Shown here piece by piece: positions 1 through 5,288 of a stretch of 5,383 nucleotides of DNA; position 1 is the first letter of the stretch; every line of letters starts with the position of its first letter. The notes beneath the pieces were generated by a model, which was not told the DNA's origin, searched no databases, and saw only the letters and a list, made by a program, of their open reading frames with translations. The DNA is from a virus (Duplodnaviria; Heunggongvirae; Uroviricota; Caudoviricetes): the IMG/VR virus record IMGVR_UViG_2609459799_000011; one strand, given 5' to 3'. The translations under genes were made by a program, and so were the position numbers.

Positions 1-91
1 GAGTCCCCACCTTGGTTAAACAACGCTTTGGCTCACAGTTTACAACAGGCATGTTAAGCCGTCTCGCAGAGATGTTATTGCAGCGAATATA

Positions 92-185
92 GCGCGGCGA
101 TTTTTTTGATACCGATTTGCATTTCATTTGATACCGCTGAAAAACGCCGATACGCAACTTATTTGATACTAAATCGGCGCTTTTC
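92..185. repeat. Direct repeats of TTTGATAC(C/T) at 105-113, 127-135 and 162-170, flanked by inverted AAATCG(G/C)CGC-like elements (92-103 and 171-182); candidate protein-binding or end-repeat array.
   Basis: Read directly from the sequence: three 9-bp copies spaced 22 and 35 bp apart; GCGCGGCGATTT (92-103) is a near reverse complement of AAATCGGCGC (171-180). Confidence 0.5.
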
Positions 186-215
186 TTTTGGGTTTTAGAA
201 TGAGTTTTTAAGCGC

Positions 216-953
216 TCATTCACTCTCTTTCAAACCAGTTTTAACTGTTTGGGGTTTTGGGTAAGGCTGGACTTTGAATAGCTTTATGTTGAGGCGTTTT
301 CTGGCCCTCTTGTTCAGAAACCGGATGTAACGAAACTGTCGGAACTTATGAACACTGGCTCTGTCGATATTAGCCCTCAGATGTTCACCTCGTTGTCCGC
401 CTCGTTTAATGGCATTCCTGCAAATCTCGTGATACCACTCGCCATCAAGTTCATAGAATGTTGATTCATGGCTGCCTACATAATCAAAATTGCTTGCCTG
501 ATACACGACACCAAGACAGCCACAACGCTCATCTGCAAACGACTGAACCCACTGTACCTGCGGATAAAGCTGTCTGATAAGTTTGAGTGCGTAACTGATG
601 GCCCTTGATTCGGAGTTTCTCGGCATACAGTCATGCAGCCATAACCGGTTAAGCTCCATATATTCGCGGTTCTGCGTACCGGTTACGACGCGCGCTCCAC
701 TGTTTGGATTAAGGGCATAACCCCATTGCATTACGCCAACCAGCTCTCGTTCTGAAAATATACCCAGATGAAGGTAGGAGTTATTTACGAAACGGTGGCT
801 GTAATGTTTATTGACGATGACCAGTCGGGCCAGCCAGCAACTTATTGTCTCAACCCGTAACTCACGGGAGCCATAACCGACGATATTGTCGTTATAGAGA
901 ATAAGTTCAGGCGTGCTGATGATACGGGATGTAACTTGTTTTCTGTTCCCCAC
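216..953 (-). CDS. mom: Mom-like DNA modification protein (adenine-modifying anti-restriction function of Mu-like phages), 245 aa, probable GTG start.
   Basis: 245-aa ORF starts with GTG (no in-frame ATG until about residue 75), overlaps the 3' end of the upstream zinc-finger com-like gene by 47 nt in another frame, and has AGGAA 8 nt upstream. Identity is from synteny with com and gin; Mom sequence itself is not recalled. Confidence 0.75.
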
Positions 954-1107
954 GACAGGATTTCCTTGTGTATGTGGGGTGCTCTGTGGCGCTCGGAGAT
1001 GTGATTTGATTGAGGGTTTTACAGCGCGGACATTTTACTTCCAGATAACTGAAACTGGCCCGTGCCAGTAACTTGTTGCAGTGTCGGCACCGTATGTTTC
1101 GATACAT
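907..1107 (-). CDS. com: Com-like zinc-finger translational activator of mom, 66 aa.
   Basis: ATG start with AGGAGG about 10 nt upstream. Cys pairs CRHC and CPRC resemble the Mu Com zinc finger, and the N-terminus ([14 protein letters not shown]) resembles recalled Mu Com (MKSIRCKNCNKLL). It overlaps the mom start. Confidence 0.75.
948..979 (-). promoter_or_regulatory. mRNA stem-loop sequestering the mom start codon and Shine-Dalgarno (translation-inhibition structure).
   Basis: On the minus strand CCCCAC (plus 974-979) pairs with GUGGGG (plus 948-953), which contains the GUG start; the loop holds AAGGAAA, and CAAGGA can pair with UCCUGU inside it. Confidence 0.5.
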
Positions 1108-1330
1108 GGCCGCATAACCTCCTGCTTTGTTGATGATATCTTTCTCGCCTAATCGATCGACAAAAACGATCGATTCGATGTGTTTAATTGATACAACAAA
1201 TAGATTGAAAAGTCATCAACAATGATTCAGGGAGGTGATTATTTACTAAAAGAAAACGAAGACTTAGGGTGTGAAAACGATCATAAAATGATCATTTTAT
1301 TGACTTTTTATCCAGTGAAGGTAGGATCGC
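1108..1330 (-). promoter_or_regulatory. GATC-rich upstream region of com-mom; candidate Dam-methylation-sensitive promoter control region.
   Basis: Five GATC sites in about 175 bp (1155, 1168, 1279, 1290, 1324), in palindromic contexts: TCGATCGA (1153-1160), CGATCGAT (1167-1174), and the 14-bp perfect palindrome AAAATGATCATTTT (1285-1298). No promoter hexamers could be assigned with confidence. Confidence 0.4.
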
Positions 1331-1367
1331 GCGCATATGTAGTATGTTTCAAATCAACAGGATACTA

Positions 1368-1406
1368 CATAAAAGGGAAACCCAGCATAGCTGGAACTAT
1401 GCTGGG
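1368..1406 (-). terminator. Candidate rho-independent terminator for leftward transcription.
   Basis: Perfect 10-bp inverted repeat CCCAGCATAG (1381-1390) / CTATGCTGGG (1397-1406) with a 6-nt loop; on the minus strand it is followed by UUUCCCUUUU. Confidence 0.45.
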
Positions 1407-1513
1407 TCAATCTGTAAAAACTTGCATCAATGCTTTACTTCGAGCTCGTGGCGTATCCTATGATATTCCCCGGTCTCCTGTAAAGCAGAGATATATCTGT
1501 TCAGGCAGGAAAA

Positions 1514-1720
1514 ATGGATAAACTAACCACAGACCCAAAGTTACAGGCTGCGCGAATTGCAGCTGATATTACAATTGCAGCAATGACATCCACCAGGGGT
1601 AACTTTACCTCTTTTCATACAGCAGGTGATTCATCCGCTATGCAGTTATGGAACGCGTGCTTTTCTGATGTAATTCGTGCAATCAGCGAGTCAGTTGACC
1701 TTCGCGAACCGCAAAAATAG
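1514..1720 (+). CDS. Hypothetical small protein, 68 aa.
   Basis: ATG preceded by AGGCAGGAAAA. It is convergent with the next ORF and overlaps its 3' end by 38 nt, so one of the two may be spurious. No recognisable motif. Confidence 0.35.
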   Translation: MDKLTTDPKLQAARIAADITIAAMTSTRGNFTSFHTAGDSSAMQLWNACFSDVIRAISESVDLREPQK

Positions 1721-1883
1721 CGCATCTTGGGGTACACAGGATCTGCATAGCTATCCACATTGCGGTGGCGAAGTTTCGATCCTGTAATGTATCTTCATCA
1801 AGTCCTGAACGTAGCGCATTGATAATTTCCGCGCTTAATCTTTCTAGGCCTTTGGTATCAGGTTGCTTTTTATTCTTGTCCAT
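1683..1883 (-). CDS. Hypothetical small protein, 66 aa from the internal ATG (78 aa if the upstream ATG at 1919 is used).
   Basis: The internal ATG at 1883 has AGAGGA 8 nt upstream; the ATG at 1919 has no Shine-Dalgarno. Same strand as the two small genes upstream. Confidence 0.4.
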   Translation of the reverse strand: MDKNKKQPDTKGLERLSAEIINALRSGLDEDTLQDRNFATAMWIAMQILCTPRCAIFAVREGQLTR

Positions 1884-1958
1884 GATTATTGTCCTCTGAT
1901 TGGTATATAAAGCGCCCATGAAAATAAAACCGACAGGAGAAACTGCCGGTTTGTATTG

Positions 1959-2213
1959 TTACATCATGGTGCTGTCAGTTCCGGGCTGAGCCGGTTCTGG
2001 TTGCTCTGGCTGCGCGTCGGTTTTCGGTTCATTATCAGCATCACTGGCCGCTGCTGCTGGCCCAATAAGTTTTTCCAGCACCTCATCAACGTAAGTGTCG
2101 ATTTGTGCCTCAAAATCCTTGCGGACCTGCGCTTTCAGCAACTTATTTACTTCACCGGAATACAGTGCCTGTTTTACCAGGTCTTCAGTGACGGTGCCTT
2201 TAATTTCTGGCAT
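1959..2213 (-). CDS. Hypothetical acidic protein, 84 aa, with a helical-looking N-terminal half and a Pro/Ala/Gln/Glu-rich tail.
   Basis: ATG with strong AAGGAGG 6 nt upstream; 35 nt downstream of the preceding small gene; acidic composition. Confidence 0.55.
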   Translation of the reverse strand: MPEIKGTVTEDLVKQALYSGEVNKLLKAQVRKDFEAQIDTYVDEVLEKLIGPAAAASDADNEPKTDAQPEQPEPAQPGTDSTMM

Positions 2214-2248
2214 GTATATCCTCCTTATGCGGGAATAAAGCCCTGCAA

Positions 2249-2431
2249 TCAGGGCTGGGTCGGGTCTTTTGGGAGCGGAGTTGCCTGCGCTGTTTTACTG
2301 AGTTTTTCAGCTGCTGCGTCCTCAATTTTGCGGCGAACATAATTTCTGATGGCCTTATAACCACCACTCACCAGATATAACGCACATACTGCCGTGCAGA
2401 AATACAATAAAATAAGCTGTAAAAATGTCAT
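2249..2431 (-). CDS. Hypothetical small single-pass membrane protein, 60 aa from ATG at 2431 (the ORF track starts at a TTG at 2443).
   Basis: ATG at 2431 with GGGAGGG 5 nt upstream. Residues about 3-23 (FLQLILLYFCTAVCALYLVSG) form a hydrophobic helix followed by a charged tail. Confidence 0.5.
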   Translation of the reverse strand: MTFLQLILLYFCTAVCALYLVSGGYKAIRNYVRRKIEDAAAEKLSKTAQATPLPKDPTQP

Positions 2432-2526
2432 TATCCCTCCCAATTATTGACATGGTGTTGACACCGGTAATATCTGTTAGGTAAAAAGGTGCACTGCATT
2501 TTTTGCTTTGGATATAACGATCTTTT

Positions 2527-2568
2527 TGCCGCCGGTTTCTTGTTTTCCCTTACCGGCGGCATTTTTTT
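2527..2568 (+). terminator. Rho-independent terminator oriented for rightward (plus-strand) transcription, with no plus-strand gene upstream.
   Basis: 10-bp stem TGCCGCCGGT (2527-2536) / ACCGGCGGCA (2552-2561) followed by TTTTTTT (2562-2568). On the minus strand the hairpin is followed by A-rich sequence, so it is not a canonical terminator for the esterase gene. Confidence 0.45.
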
Positions 2569-2575
2569 ATCCTGC

Positions 2576-4630
2576 TTACGCGTTATTCACTTCCACCACG
2601 ATACTGTCAATCAGTACCGGGTAAGTCGCATTTTTAGTGATATCGGTCACGCGCAACTTGTCTGCCGTAAACGTGCCGACCGGAGACTGCGACAGCATGA
2701 ATGGTGTCCCGTCCTTACCATCAATGACCGGCGTCACCTCAATACTGTTGTTACCGGCAAAACGGAAGCCCAGCGTATGCCATTCGTTATTAAATGCGCC
2801 GAATGACCCCAGCTTCGTGTTCTGCGCCGTGTTTCCTTTGTGATACATCACGTTAAGGTCTGTGGCATCGCTCTGTACGTAGAACGATGCCAGCAGGTTA
2901 TGACCGGCATTTCCTTCCAGAGTAACCCCTTGCGGCAGGGCAGAAACCGGCCAGTACAGCGCCAGTGCGTACTGATTAGCCGTAAGCGCGCCATCGAGTT
3001 TAAAACGACAACTGACAAGACCACCTTTACCCAGCAGGTCCGCACCATTACCAGCATCATGCTCAAGGTACCAGGGGGCTCTTCCTGTTTCCTTGGTCAG
3101 TTTCATTGCCTTACCCCCGCTGGCTCCGGCATCATCCACGATTTGAGCCTTGCCACCTCCGGCAGCCCAACCCTGTGGTGTCAACCGTCCTTCAGACTCA
3201 GATGCCCGGTAAGCAAATAGCGTACTCATCGTCGTGGTGTCTGCGGGTGGCGTGGACGGTTTTGATGGTGTATCAGGTGACGGCTTCTCATCCGGTGGTG
3301 TCACGGTCTGCCCGCGCATCAGTTCAGCCGTGCGCCCTGCATGGAGCATAATAGCTGAGGCCAGACGGTCTGAAATGACGCCCCTGCGTGCCCATGAGCT
3401 GAAATGGCTGTCACGCTGTGTCGAAACAAAACTGCCCTGGGTTCGGGATGCTGCACCGTAATACCCGACAGCCACAATATCCGGGTCTTCCGCCGGAGCA
3501 TTCGTTGGCGTGCTCTGTCCATTCTCATCCGTCAGGAACGGTACAAAGAAAATTTTCTGTGCTTCCTTGCCTTTGTAGCCACCGTATACTGCCTCATATT
3601 TATCGGTGCCAGCGTTTTTCCAGTAATACGTGGTATCACCGCAAATCCACGGCACCGTGGTGGCATTTCCACTCACGCACTGCGCAGCAAGCGGAGCCAG
3701 GTCAGTTCTGAACTGCTGAACCATGGCCGTGAATAAACTATTATGCTGCTGGCTTCCTGAGGCAAGGTCTGCCTCTCCCTGCATCCAGACCACAGCCAGA
3801 AGTTTGTTTTTCGGGTTTTTCGCCAGCGCGACTTTGGTGCGGCTTACCAGGTCCTGATACAGAGGTTTACCGGCCCCCCAGCGTGAAGAATCAGCGGAAG
3901 CACCGCTGGCCTCACTGAATGAGCCGTCGGCTCCAGTGGTGAATGCTGACCCGCCACGACAACAGGGCACCAGAAGTATCCCGGCATTCTGTGGGATATA
4001 GGGAAGCAGTTTTTTGGCAATATGCAACCCCTGACCGACAGTCCCGTACTGGCCTTTTGCCAGATCAGCTTTCGGGTGGTTTATCCCGCTCATATCCTGA
4101 ACATCATGCAGGCAGTGGTCTGCCGGAATGATGTCGTTGTATGTACACGACGTACCGTTGGGCGTTACCGTACTGCGGCGTGCCAGTTGCTTAATGCGTG
4201 GGTCCGGGCGGTCAAACGAATCCGGTAACGGCAGCCCCTCGCCGTAGGCCATGCCATTTGACTGACCCGCGAGAATGACAACAAAGTAATATTCCGGCTC
4301 TGAACTGCTGCCATTCGTGCTACCGGAAGGCCCGGCGTTATCCGGTGCATTCCAGTCGGAGGGCGTGAGCGTTCCGGCCACGTCAGATGTGATTGGAATG
4401 ATGCCAGTCACGCCTGAACTGGTGATTTCTGCACTGGGATTACCGGATACCGGCATTACCCATAATGGCTCTTTCGTGCTGAAGCGGATCACGCAGTCTG
4501 CGAAGGTGATCCCCCCTTTATTACCCGAAGGGCGGAAAGGGCTTTCAATAAATGCCACCGTGCCACCGGCAACCTTGACTGAAAACTCTCCGGGCATGGC
4601 GGAGAGCATTTTCCACTTGGAGTCTGACAT
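2576..4630 (-). CDS. Putative carbohydrate O-acetylesterase of the SASA/SGNH-hydrolase type (phage NanS-p-like), 684 aa, with a Pro/Thr-rich linker and lectin-like C-terminal domain.
   Basis: Motifs LAGQSNG (residues 120-126; Ser124 at nt 4259-4261), WMQGEAD (282-288) and DSH (407-409) resemble sialate O-acetylesterase family signatures as recalled. Linker QTVTPPDEKPSPDTPSKPSTPP is at about residues 441-468 (nt 3227-3310), followed by a roughly 215-residue C-terminal region. No N-terminal signal peptide is evident. Confidence 0.8.
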   Translation of the reverse strand: MSDSKWKMLSAMPGEFSVKVAGGTVAFIESPFRPSGNKGGITFADCVIRFSTKEPLWVMPVSGNPSAEITSSGVTGIIPITSDVAGTLTPSDWNAPDNAGPSGSTNGSSSEPEYYFVVILAGQSNGMAYGEGLPLPDSFDRPDPRIKQLARRSTVTPNGTSCTYNDIIPADHCLHDVQDMSGINHPKADLAKGQYGTVGQGLHIAKKLLPYIPQNAGILLVPCCRGGSAFTTGADGSFSEASGASADSSRWGAGKPLYQDLVSRTKVALAKNPKNKLLAVVWMQGEADLASGSQQHNSLFTAMVQQFRTDLAPLAAQCVSGNATTVPWICGDTTYYWKNAGTDKYEAVYGGYKGKEAQKIFFVPFLTDENGQSTPTNAPAEDPDIVAVGYYGAASRTQGSFVSTQRDSHFSSWARRGVISDRLASAIMLHAGRTAELMRGQTVTPPDEKPSPDTPSKPSTPPADTTTMSTLFAYRASESEGRLTPQGWAAGGGKAQIVDDAGASGGKAMKLTKETGRAPWYLEHDAGNGADLLGKGGLVSCRFKLDGALTANQYALALYWPVSALPQGVTLEGNAGHNLLASFYVQSDATDLNVMYHKGNTAQNTKLGSFGAFNNEWHTLGFRFAGNNSIEVTPVIDGKDGTPFMLSQSPVGTFTADKLRVTDITKNATYPVLIDSIVVEVNNA

Positions 4631-4703
4631 CGTCTTTTCTGCCTGTTTCTGAATTAAACAGAGTCAGAATAGCGACCGCTGAAAAATATGTGTTTTGCGG
4701 AAA

Positions 4704-4735
4704 TTCAAAAAAGCGTCACGGTACTTTTGGTGACG
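4704..4735 (-). terminator. Weak candidate terminator overlapping the invertase stop codon.
   Basis: Minus strand: stem CGUCAC (plus 4730-4735) / GUGACG (plus 4714-4719) with a 10-nt loop, then C plus UUUUUU (plus A-run 4707-4712). The invertase stop codon lies within the 3' arm. Short stem and large loop suggest it is leaky. Confidence 0.35.
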
Positions 4736-5288
4736 GAGCTGGTGAGGCAGGAAAATAACGATAAAGGGTGGAAAGGCCAATATCAAATATCAGTGCGATT
4801 TGTTTACGGGACTCGCCATTAGCCAGCAAACGGGCGATTTGCTCCCGCTCTTTCTCTGTCAGTTTCTGAGGTCTGCCGCCATGACGCCCCTGAGCACGGG
4901 CAGCAGCAAGACCCGCGCGTGTACGTTCAATAATGAGTTCCCGCTCCATTTCCGCCAGCGCGCCCATTATATGGAAAAAGAAACGTCCCATGGGAGTGGA
5001 TGTATCAATATTGTCCGTAATGCTGCGGAAGTTAACGCCGCGTTGCCGGAGTTCTTCTGTTAAAAGGACAAGGTGCTGCATACTGCGTCCAAGGCGATCC
5101 AGTTTCCAGACCAGCAGGGTATCCCCTGGCCGGAGTCGCTTTAATGCGCGTTTAAGTCCGGGACGCTCCCTTGTCTTACCGCTTATTCTGTCTTCGAAAA
5201 ACAGCTCACATCCTGCACATTCCAGCGCATTTCTTTGTAGCGCCGTATTCTGGTCATTTGTTGACACCCTGATATACCCAATCAGCAT
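4716..5288 (-). CDS. gin: Serine DNA invertase of the Gin/Hin/Pin/Cin family, 190 aa.
   Basis: N-terminus MLIGYIRVSTNDQNT...LQRNAL, the stretch GDTLLVWKLDRLGRSM, MGRFFFHIMGALAEMERELIIERT and a C-terminal helix-turn-helix (LSTLYRY) closely match Gin and Hin as recalled. AAGGAA lies 5 nt upstream of the ATG. The symbol gin is chosen from the com-mom context. Confidence 0.9.
   Translation of the reverse strand: MLIGYIRVSTNDQNTALQRNALECAGCELFFEDRISGKTRERPGLKRALKRLRPGDTLLVWKLDRLGRSMQHLVLLTEELRQRGVNFRSITDNIDTSTPMGRFFFHIMGALAEMERELIIERTRAGLAAARAQGRHGGRPQKLTEKEREQIARLLANGESRKQIALIFDIGLSTLYRYFPASPAPSPKVP

Follow-up and report, generated by a model that had tools for sequence, protein, structure and literature searches.

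We identified positions 1108-4715 of IMG/VR record IMGVR_UViG_2609459799_000011, a 5,383-nucleotide stretch of DNA referred to here as the window, as probably an accessory ('moron') cassette that is conserved among Sp18-like transposable prophages of the Mu family in Escherichia coli and Shigella, located between the DNA invertase gene gin and the control region of the DNA modification gene mom. In function and kind, the locus is mostly a NanS-p cassette: its main gene encodes a NanS-p-type sialate O-acetylesterase and is followed by small genes of the DUF1378 and DUF826 families and by a slot that varies between prophage lineages (Table 1). A preliminary description of the window had singled out about 3.6 kb between gin and com-mom, which are nearly adjacent in phage Mu, and had listed within it a large esterase gene, three small co-oriented genes, hairpins and GATC palindromes. 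These observations were borne out. The flanking genes were confirmed by Pfam, PHROG and identity to Mu proteins, the interval is expanded by about 3.5 kb, the esterase gene and the three small genes are all on the minus strand, the hairpins fold far better than shuffled sequence, and the palindrome at 1151-1175 is real and lies among clustered GATC sites. The same description had regarded the stretch as the one most likely to carry an accessory or previously undescribed function. Accessory genes are indeed present; 'undescribed' was not supported, as the main gene belongs to an experimentally studied family, and nor was a special status of the stretch, by the condition that the description itself had set for ordinary conserved content, as every Sp18-like locus examined (O157:H7, a Mu-like phage inserted in Shiga toxin (Stx) phages, and 34 IMG/VR contigs) has the same genes at the same position.

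The whole window, read on the minus strand, is the right end of a Mu-like prophage. Prophages of several complete E. coli genomes match it at 99.9% identity over 98% of its length. In strain NCCP15648 the matching element has genes of Mu type for head, tail and baseplate, together with an invertible segment for the tail fibre; beyond this come, in order, the recombinase, the DUF6645 protein, DUF1378, DUF826, a pair of hypothetical entries, Com, Mom and, last, the host gene elfC, which is disrupted. A relative in an O157 strain, annotated from end to end, encodes a Mu transposase, a B-type ATPase, Gam, Mor and lysis genes and is thus a complete Mu-like prophage; its type, Sp18, comprises intact Mu-like phages with variable insertion sites (PMC2669165, PMC10132054). 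Window-type prophages and the O157 relative both combine Mu-type genes in one element with variable insertion, the insertion site being elfC, frvX or a restriction gene, depending on the genome. Similarity of the window to other genomes ends at positions 80-88, again depending on the genome, and positions 1-78 are host flank unlike the insertion site in the closest complete genomes, which fits a phage transposing to variable sites. Three short repeats near this end are likely candidates for transposase-binding sites.

The genes flanking the cassette, gin on its left and com-mom on its right, are securely identified. Gin is a serine invertase with a C-terminal helix-turn-helix and shares 74% amino acid identity with Mu Gin, with a C-terminus that differs from those of Mu, D108 and SfMu. 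Its gene lies by a gix-type crossover site, which agrees with what we take to be the Mu-type gix core and which is adjoined by tail-fibre and fibre-assembly genes in the surrounding prophage (locus L001). com overlaps the Mom-family gene by 47 nt and has a cluster of GATC sites ahead of it. The window thus shares with the right ends of Mu, D108 and SfMu the gix site, Gin, Mom, the com-mom overlap, a GATC region upstream of com and a prophage end soon after mom. It differs from them in the spacing of gin and com, which are less than 100 bp apart in the Mu-type arrangement (82-94 bp in these three phages). Some Sp18-like prophages have a 350-amino-acid open reading frame (ORF) with C5-cytosine-methyltransferase-like motifs in place of mom (L006 9221-10472; L049, L055, L061; match H157); it overlaps a com that retains only the first ~57 conserved residues, and looks like a swap of the DNA modification enzyme behind the same com leader.

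The distance from the gin stop (4716) to the com start (1107) is 3608 bp in the window, compared with 94, 82 and 82 bp in the annotated records of Mu, D108 and SfMu. Across the 29 loci that hold both gin and com, to which this survey was confined, the distance was bimodal. In Mu, D108, SfMu and one prophage each of Edwardsiella and Pantoea it was 125-295 bp; in 24 Sp18-like loci, all of which contain the esterase gene, it was 3224-3697 bp. All 29 of the later loci with com also contain it. The interval is therefore expanded only in a subset of Mu-like phages. The same layout recurs in O157, in the mouse strain M18, in 34 IMG/VR loci and in the Mu-like phage found inside Stx phages, although M18 and several of the IMG/VR loci lack an intact gin. 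Sp18-type com-mom was present in 233 of 5426 complete E. coli genomes, and gin-to-mom blocks covered over at least 80% of their length were of the O157 type in 168, of the window type in 22 and of the compact Mu type in 44 of these genomes. Complete E. coli genomes thus carry the Sp18-like lineage about five times as often as the compact Mu layout (233 vs 44), and together with the bimodal distances these counts indicate that the expansion is a fixed trait of one lineage and the commoner state in E. coli.

Sp18 of O157:H7 Sakai and its relatives in Shiga toxin-producing E. coli have the order gin, esterase, DUF1378, DUF826, reverse ORF, com, mom in common with the window, and com/mom are 95-99% identical. 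The window carries the other allele type: its esterase is 66% and the enzyme's N-terminal domain 60% identical to theirs, and the reverse ORF, intact in O157 prophages, is truncated by a 470-bp insert carrying the small genes hyp66 and orf68. Type A and type B prophages (L001 18171-23425 vs L066) differ in one block that spans tail fibre, fibre assembly, gin, esterase, DUF1378 and DUF826 (61-80% amino acid identity), and the flanks of this block are near-identical (gp48/YmfQ 99%, com/mom 95-99%). The esterase cassette appears to be inherited along with the host-range region.

Our reading is that the compact state is probably ancestral and that the cassette was inserted long ago between gin and the region that controls mom. 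The final gin codons of Mu overlap the GATC control region, which is the expected undisturbed state, and homology of the window to Mu picks up again exactly there, at the palindrome at 1151-1175. The reverse course, in which mom-bearing Mu-like phages had the cassette at this position from the start and it was deleted in Mu, D108 and SfMu, nothing having been inserted, would account for signs of an old association: a Salmonella Mu-like prophage likewise has an esterase after gin, with an N-terminal domain that is just 30% identical, esterase alleles within E. coli differ by up to 48%, and the small genes no longer match lambdoid DNA. We nevertheless consider it improbable given the position at which homology resumes, the compact gin-com layout in several genera (Escherichia, Shigella, Edwardsiella and Pantoea), and the otherwise typical occurrence of the esterase, DUF1378 and DUF826 families in lambdoid and P2-like enterobacterial phages. 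A foreign origin of the esterase gene as judged by base composition was rejected, the G+C content of the gene (0.549) being close to that of the prophage late genes (0.568); a lambdoid nanS-p has 0.553. Base composition therefore does not mark the esterase as foreign and singles out the variable slot as AT-rich. The G+C content of gin, com and mom together is 0.487, that of the small-gene part 0.435 and that of the pseudogene in the slot 0.387, and AT-richness is confined to the slot.

The content of the cassette can be compared with known NanS-p loci. The esterase has the NanS-homologous SASA domain and the C-terminal DUF6645 domain of NanS-p proteins; it departs from them in lacking the N-terminal DUF1737 (PF08410) and in lying outside the lambdoid late-region position between Q/stx and the lysis genes. 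The catalytic blocks GQSN (Ser124), QGE (284-286) and SHF/His409 are invariant in an alignment with the O157, M18 and lambdoid alleles. Using tblastn, we found homologues in 349 phage records, mostly of Stx-converting phages and 303 of them at 60-80% identity, with alignments that begin at about residue 63-100 of the window esterase. Lambdoid NanS-p alleles have esterase activity on Neu5,9Ac2 and mucin glycans and support growth of lysogens on Neu5,9Ac2 (review PMC8065619), and the window enzyme would be expected to de-O-acetylate the same substrates.

The NanS-p proteins of Stx and other lambdoid phages (933W z1466/L0105; phi24B vb_24B_21/gp84) resemble the window protein in the NanS-like catalytic domain and in the C-terminal domain similar to PDB 6yp6 (~65% identity over the shared part), and their genes resemble the window gene in having DUF1378 and DUF826 downstream and a temperate E. 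coli phage as carrier. They differ in the N-terminus, which is DUF1737 in these proteins and an unrelated β-barrel of ~95 residues in the window, and in location, between Q/stx and the holin gene rather than between gin and com-mom of a Mu-like myovirus. In an Stx2 phage the order is nanS-p, DUF1378, holin gene, and DUF826 and DUF1378 have been described between nanS-p and the holin gene S of Stx phages (PMC10462455); the order esterase-DUF1378-DUF826 of the window matches this lambdoid late-region block in gene order and protein family. P2-like phages (such as vB_EcoM-569R5 and P88), which are temperate myoviruses outside the lambdoid group, also have a homologous SASA esterase among their add-on genes, but in their copies the N-terminus is still DUF1737-like and the gene is placed after those for lysis (directly after them in vB_EcoM-569R5, L030 3770-5020). 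With lambdoid, P2-like and Mu-like copies, the enzyme occurs in three temperate phage architectures. With 80% identity, the catalytic domain of the O157 allele is nearer to a lambdoid allele than to the remaining groups of Mu-type alleles.

The one unusual point of the cassette is the window esterase's N-terminal domain, which was found only in esterases of Mu-like prophages. Residues 1-110 have no Pfam match even at an E value of 10, and word-indexed protein searches with the domain recovered nothing but pieces of these same esterases. When 1.8 billion representative proteins were searched exhaustively with phmmer, the domain occurred only in these esterases; the search added a distant but true relative from Salmonella and a match that is likely spurious, and all recovered genomic contexts are Mu-like prophages. 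In the Salmonella enterica prophage (L031 9426-10461), two extra small ORFs (58 and 87 amino acids) lie between gin and the esterase, and the contig ends within the esterase. AlphaFold2 with a six-sequence alignment confidently predicted a small all-β barrel (block-mean predicted local distance difference test (pLDDT) scores of 71-90 over residues 1-80); a single-sequence AlphaFold2 model of the whole esterase was unusable (mean pLDDT 33). Identity of the domain with DUF1737 was ruled out: it does not align to the lambdoid NanS-p N-terminus (14-17% identity) and its predicted fold is all-β, whereas the DUF1737 fold is described as a helix and three strands (preprint 10.64898/2026.04.10.717836). 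Fold searches gave only weak matches, to cupin/jelly-roll folds, small uncharacterised phage proteins and the spike domain of phage PM2. Between two E. coli allele types, the proportion of non-synonymous differences (pN) in the domain is 0.24 and that of synonymous differences (pS) a saturated 0.78; the domain is under purifying selection. It is 97-100% identical among four type-B alleles, while the catalytic domains of three of the four are mutually just 67-69% identical and their C-terminal domains 36-46%. This mosaic indicates that the enzyme domains are exchanged with other prophages and that the N-terminal domain stays with the Mu backbone.

The phi24B NanS-p (gp84) is reported to be a capsid-decorating protein that DUF1737 anchors at hexon centres (preprint 10.64898/2026.04.10.717836). 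By analogy, the esterase may be a virion component rather than an enzyme that benefits the lysogen, with its N-terminal domain docking on the Mu-like head, sheath or baseplate, where it would help the phage to bind or cross O-acetylated mucus or surface glycans. We put this forward tentatively, as a minority explanation. It is exactly DUF1737 that is replaced here by a small domain limited to Mu-like prophages, the replacement stays with the Mu backbone through exchanges of the enzyme domains, and P2-like phages retain DUF1737. The cassette also lies in one divergent block with the tail-fibre and invertible region, and the weak fold matches include small phage proteins, jelly rolls and the PM2 spike domain. 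Against this, the 1.8 billion representative proteins contain no stand-alone copies of the domain, the capsid result for phi24B comes from a single preprint, and the domain might just as well serve as a second carbohydrate-binding module. Nor can a comparison of two prophage types single out a virion partner that co-varies with the domain: type A and type B virion proteins diverge in several places (HI1506-related protein 71%, sheath 77%, baseplate P 76% identity), and two genomes cannot discriminate between them. That the domain is a docking module which fixes a mucin-directed esterase on the Mu-like virion, matching in function the capsid-binding DUF1737 found in Stx and P2-like phages, is thus a possibility we rate well below even. 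If true, NanS-p enzymes would serve as a portable 'virion decoration', the anchor domain being swapped to suit each phage architecture while the catalytic and lectin domains circulate freely among co-resident prophages.

The slot between DUF826 and com differs by lineage, holding a 154-amino-acid zinc-ribbon ORF in O157, a 175-amino-acid zinc-ribbon ORF in M18, and two convergent genes and a truncated ORF in the window. The single convergent small ORF of the preliminary description is present on the plus strand but is one of two, at 1222-1521 and 1514-1720, the former being a truncated pseudogene. This remnant is 90% identical to residues 1-92 of the O157 ORF, which is intact there, and unrelated beyond, the reverse ORF being cut by the 470-bp segment. 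Its substitutions lack codon-position bias (20/15/20; 16 synonymous, 39 non-synonymous). hyp66 and orf68, on the 470-bp insert found in 17 of 5426 E. coli genomes, are both probably real genes, because substitutions are biased to third positions: 4/1/11 by codon position among diverged copies of hyp66 (11 synonymous, 5 non-synonymous) and 2/4/19 in orf68 (17 synonymous and 8 non-synonymous in its own frame, 2 and 23 in the opposite frame). Neither hyp66 nor orf68 had a family match in Pfam, PHROG, PADLOC or NCBIfam, and a family search with orf68 gave nothing beyond a weak match to phrog_25148. A slot of this kind could be taken for a hotspot of anti-phage defence or superinfection exclusion, such as other temperate phages have at their variable ends, and the same could be supposed of the interval as a whole. 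The differences between lineages and the low G+C content of the slot at 1222-1919 (0.39-0.45) would fit such a role, which we nevertheless regard as very unlikely: PADLOC gave zero matches for eight proteins, the small ORFs had no above-threshold Pfam or NCBIfam matches (the Pfam zinc-ribbon matches are weak and sub-threshold), and the slot proteins are very small, the most widespread one showing no sign of purifying selection.

Read as an accessory cassette, the interval would be transcribed on the gin strand, either by read-through from gin or from its own, unmapped promoter, and the timing of its expression is inferred. The terminator scan and folding revealed no terminator-like structure in the 85-bp gin-esterase spacer, so read-through from gin is possible; the esterase is intact in loci that lost gin, so a promoter of its own is also likely. 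As read from the sequence, the esterase has no signal-peptide-like N-terminus, and release at lysis or carriage on particles would hence be expected, with the enzyme reaching its substrate at cell lysis or on the virion. Three terminator-like hairpins would close the cassette and keep its transcription out of com-mom; none of 200 shuffled sequences folds as well as the last of them (1379-1408). Such insulation makes sense because untimely expression of Mu mom is toxic and is guarded against by Dam/OxyR, the activator C and the divergent promoter momP2 (PMC3378877).

Directly upstream of com, the Dam/OxyR GATC control region seems to be retained. The palindrome at 1151-1175 is, by its alignment with Mu, D108 and SfMu, the counterpart of the Dam/OxyR-controlled region upstream of Mu Pmom, and five of the 12 GATC sites in the window fall within 1155-1328 (binomial P 2e-5, ~7e-4 after correction for window choice). 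The last GATC is ~48 bp from the com start, compared with ~77 bp in Mu (window 1108-1160 vs L002 about 4690-4768), and the T-run and activator-site region of Mu Pmom has no obvious counterpart in the window. With this shorter spacing and no such counterpart, the core geometry of the mom promoter must differ in this lineage. The reverse ORF starts 114 bp from com, across the palindrome, and a momP2-like promoter, if present, would point toward it.

Several observations weigh against our interpretation of the cassette or leave parts of it less certain. A moron would have its own promoter and terminator and be absent from close relatives at the same position. Terminator-like hairpins are present and the cassette is absent from Mu, D108 and SfMu; no promoter could be assigned by consensus scan, which was uninformative, with four sigma-70 matches vs 7.1 in shuffled sequence, and strain M18 does not conserve the only promoter candidate that precedes the esterase. 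The hairpin at 2527-2561 has its T-run on the plus strand (A-run on the minus strand), opposite to the cassette strand. Substrate and activity of the Mu-type allele are extrapolated from alleles that are ~65-70% identical, and no function is known for DUF1378, DUF826, hyp66 or orf68. The small genes have no detectable DNA homology to lambdoid copies and match only other Mu-like copies; a shared origin of the whole block consequently rests on protein families and gene order, and the block is not a recent transfer. Finally, the constancy of the N-terminal domain could reflect a lack of homologous donors in lambdoid phages and not a Mu-specific role.

Table 1. Features of the window, in order of position.
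Feature	Position	Strand	Evidence and remarks
Prophage right end	79-215		Three TTTGATAC(C/T) repeats at 105-114, 128-137 and 163-171
mom, DNA adenine modification enzyme	216-953	-	Pfam Mom, E 2.4e-77; 79.5% amino acid identity to Mu Mom
com, zinc-ribbon translational activator of mom; right flank of cassette	907-1107	-	Pfam Zn_ribbon_Com, 2e-12; phrog_13819, phrog_6417
GATC palindrome AATCGATCG-N7-CGATCGATT	1151-1175		Aligns with Mu/D108/SfMu AAATCGATCGGTAATACAGATCGATTATG
Truncated remnant (pseudogene) of reverse-strand ORF, divergent from com	1222-1521	+	First ~92 codons of the 154-amino-acid O157 ORF; RefSeq pseudogene
13-bp hairpin with U-rich tail, inside pseudogene; last terminator-like site before mom control region	1379-1408	-	Terminator scan; folding free energy (dG) -21.9, z -5.94
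orf68, 68 amino acids, convergent	1514-1720	+	Codon-position bias; 3' end overlaps hyp66 by 38 nt
hyp66, 66 amino acids	1683-1883	-	RefSeq WP_001388991.1; longer ORF form 1683-1919 (66-78 amino acids)
Intrinsic-terminator-like hairpin with U-tract after DUF826	1927-1952	-	Terminator scan; dG -14.5, z -3.65
DUF826 small acidic protein, 84 amino acids	1959-2213	-	Pfam DUF826, 3.9e-15; phrog_311, 1e-28
DUF1378 small protein, one predicted N-terminal transmembrane helix	2249-2443	-	Pfam DUF1378, 1.2e-32; phrog_494; RefSeq start 2431
GC-rich 10-bp stem-loop just after esterase stop	2527-2561		Inverted repeat; fold dG -20, z -3.97
NanS-p-type sialate O-acetylesterase, 684 amino acids	2576-4630	-	Pfam SASA and DUF6645
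Esterase residues 469-683, lectin-like jelly-roll C-terminal domain (DUF6645)	2582-3226	-	PDB 6yp6 (phi24B NanS-p), E 7.1e-98; Pfam DUF6645, 7.4e-68
Esterase residues 110-428, SGNH/SASA catalytic domain, homologous to E. coli NanS	3347-4303	-	PDB 3pt5 (NanS/YjhS), E 1.8e-117; Pfam SASA, 1.5e-13
Esterase residues 1-95, Mu-type N-terminal domain, predicted small all-β barrel	4346-4630	-	AlphaFold2; no Pfam match
gin-type serine DNA invertase, 190 amino acids; left flank of cassette	4716-5288	-	Pfam Resolvase, E 1.6e-51, and HTH_7, 4.9e-15; phrog_125 DNA invertase, 1.9e-94
gix-type crossover site just upstream of gin; right border of invertible tail-fibre segment	5352-5378	-	TTTCCCGTAAACCGAGGTTTTCAGGAA

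An Rfam search of the window gave no matches, and ARAGORN found no tRNA at the 'tRNA-OTHER' that RefSeq annotates in the prophage head-gene cluster (L001 3988-4067).

Public genomes have contained the cassette genes ever since Sakai was sequenced, and RefSeq annotates them; beyond the points that follow, the locus is ordinary prophage accessory content. In the literature searched, we found no paper that links nanS-p or sialate esterases to Mu-like prophages. Discussion of NanS-p is almost confined to its role as cargo of Stx and other lambdoid prophages, where it lets pathogenic E. coli feed on O-acetylated sialic acids from the mucus of the gut. Transposable prophages of a widespread Mu-like family have their own version of the esterase at a fixed site, in about 4% of complete E. 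coli genomes, including many O157:H7 strains; these alleles should therefore be covered when nanS-p copies are counted in a strain or knocked out. That a lineage-specific domain stands in place of the one reported to bind the capsid provides a testable handle on whether these esterases are parts of the virion or factors that benefit the lysogen.

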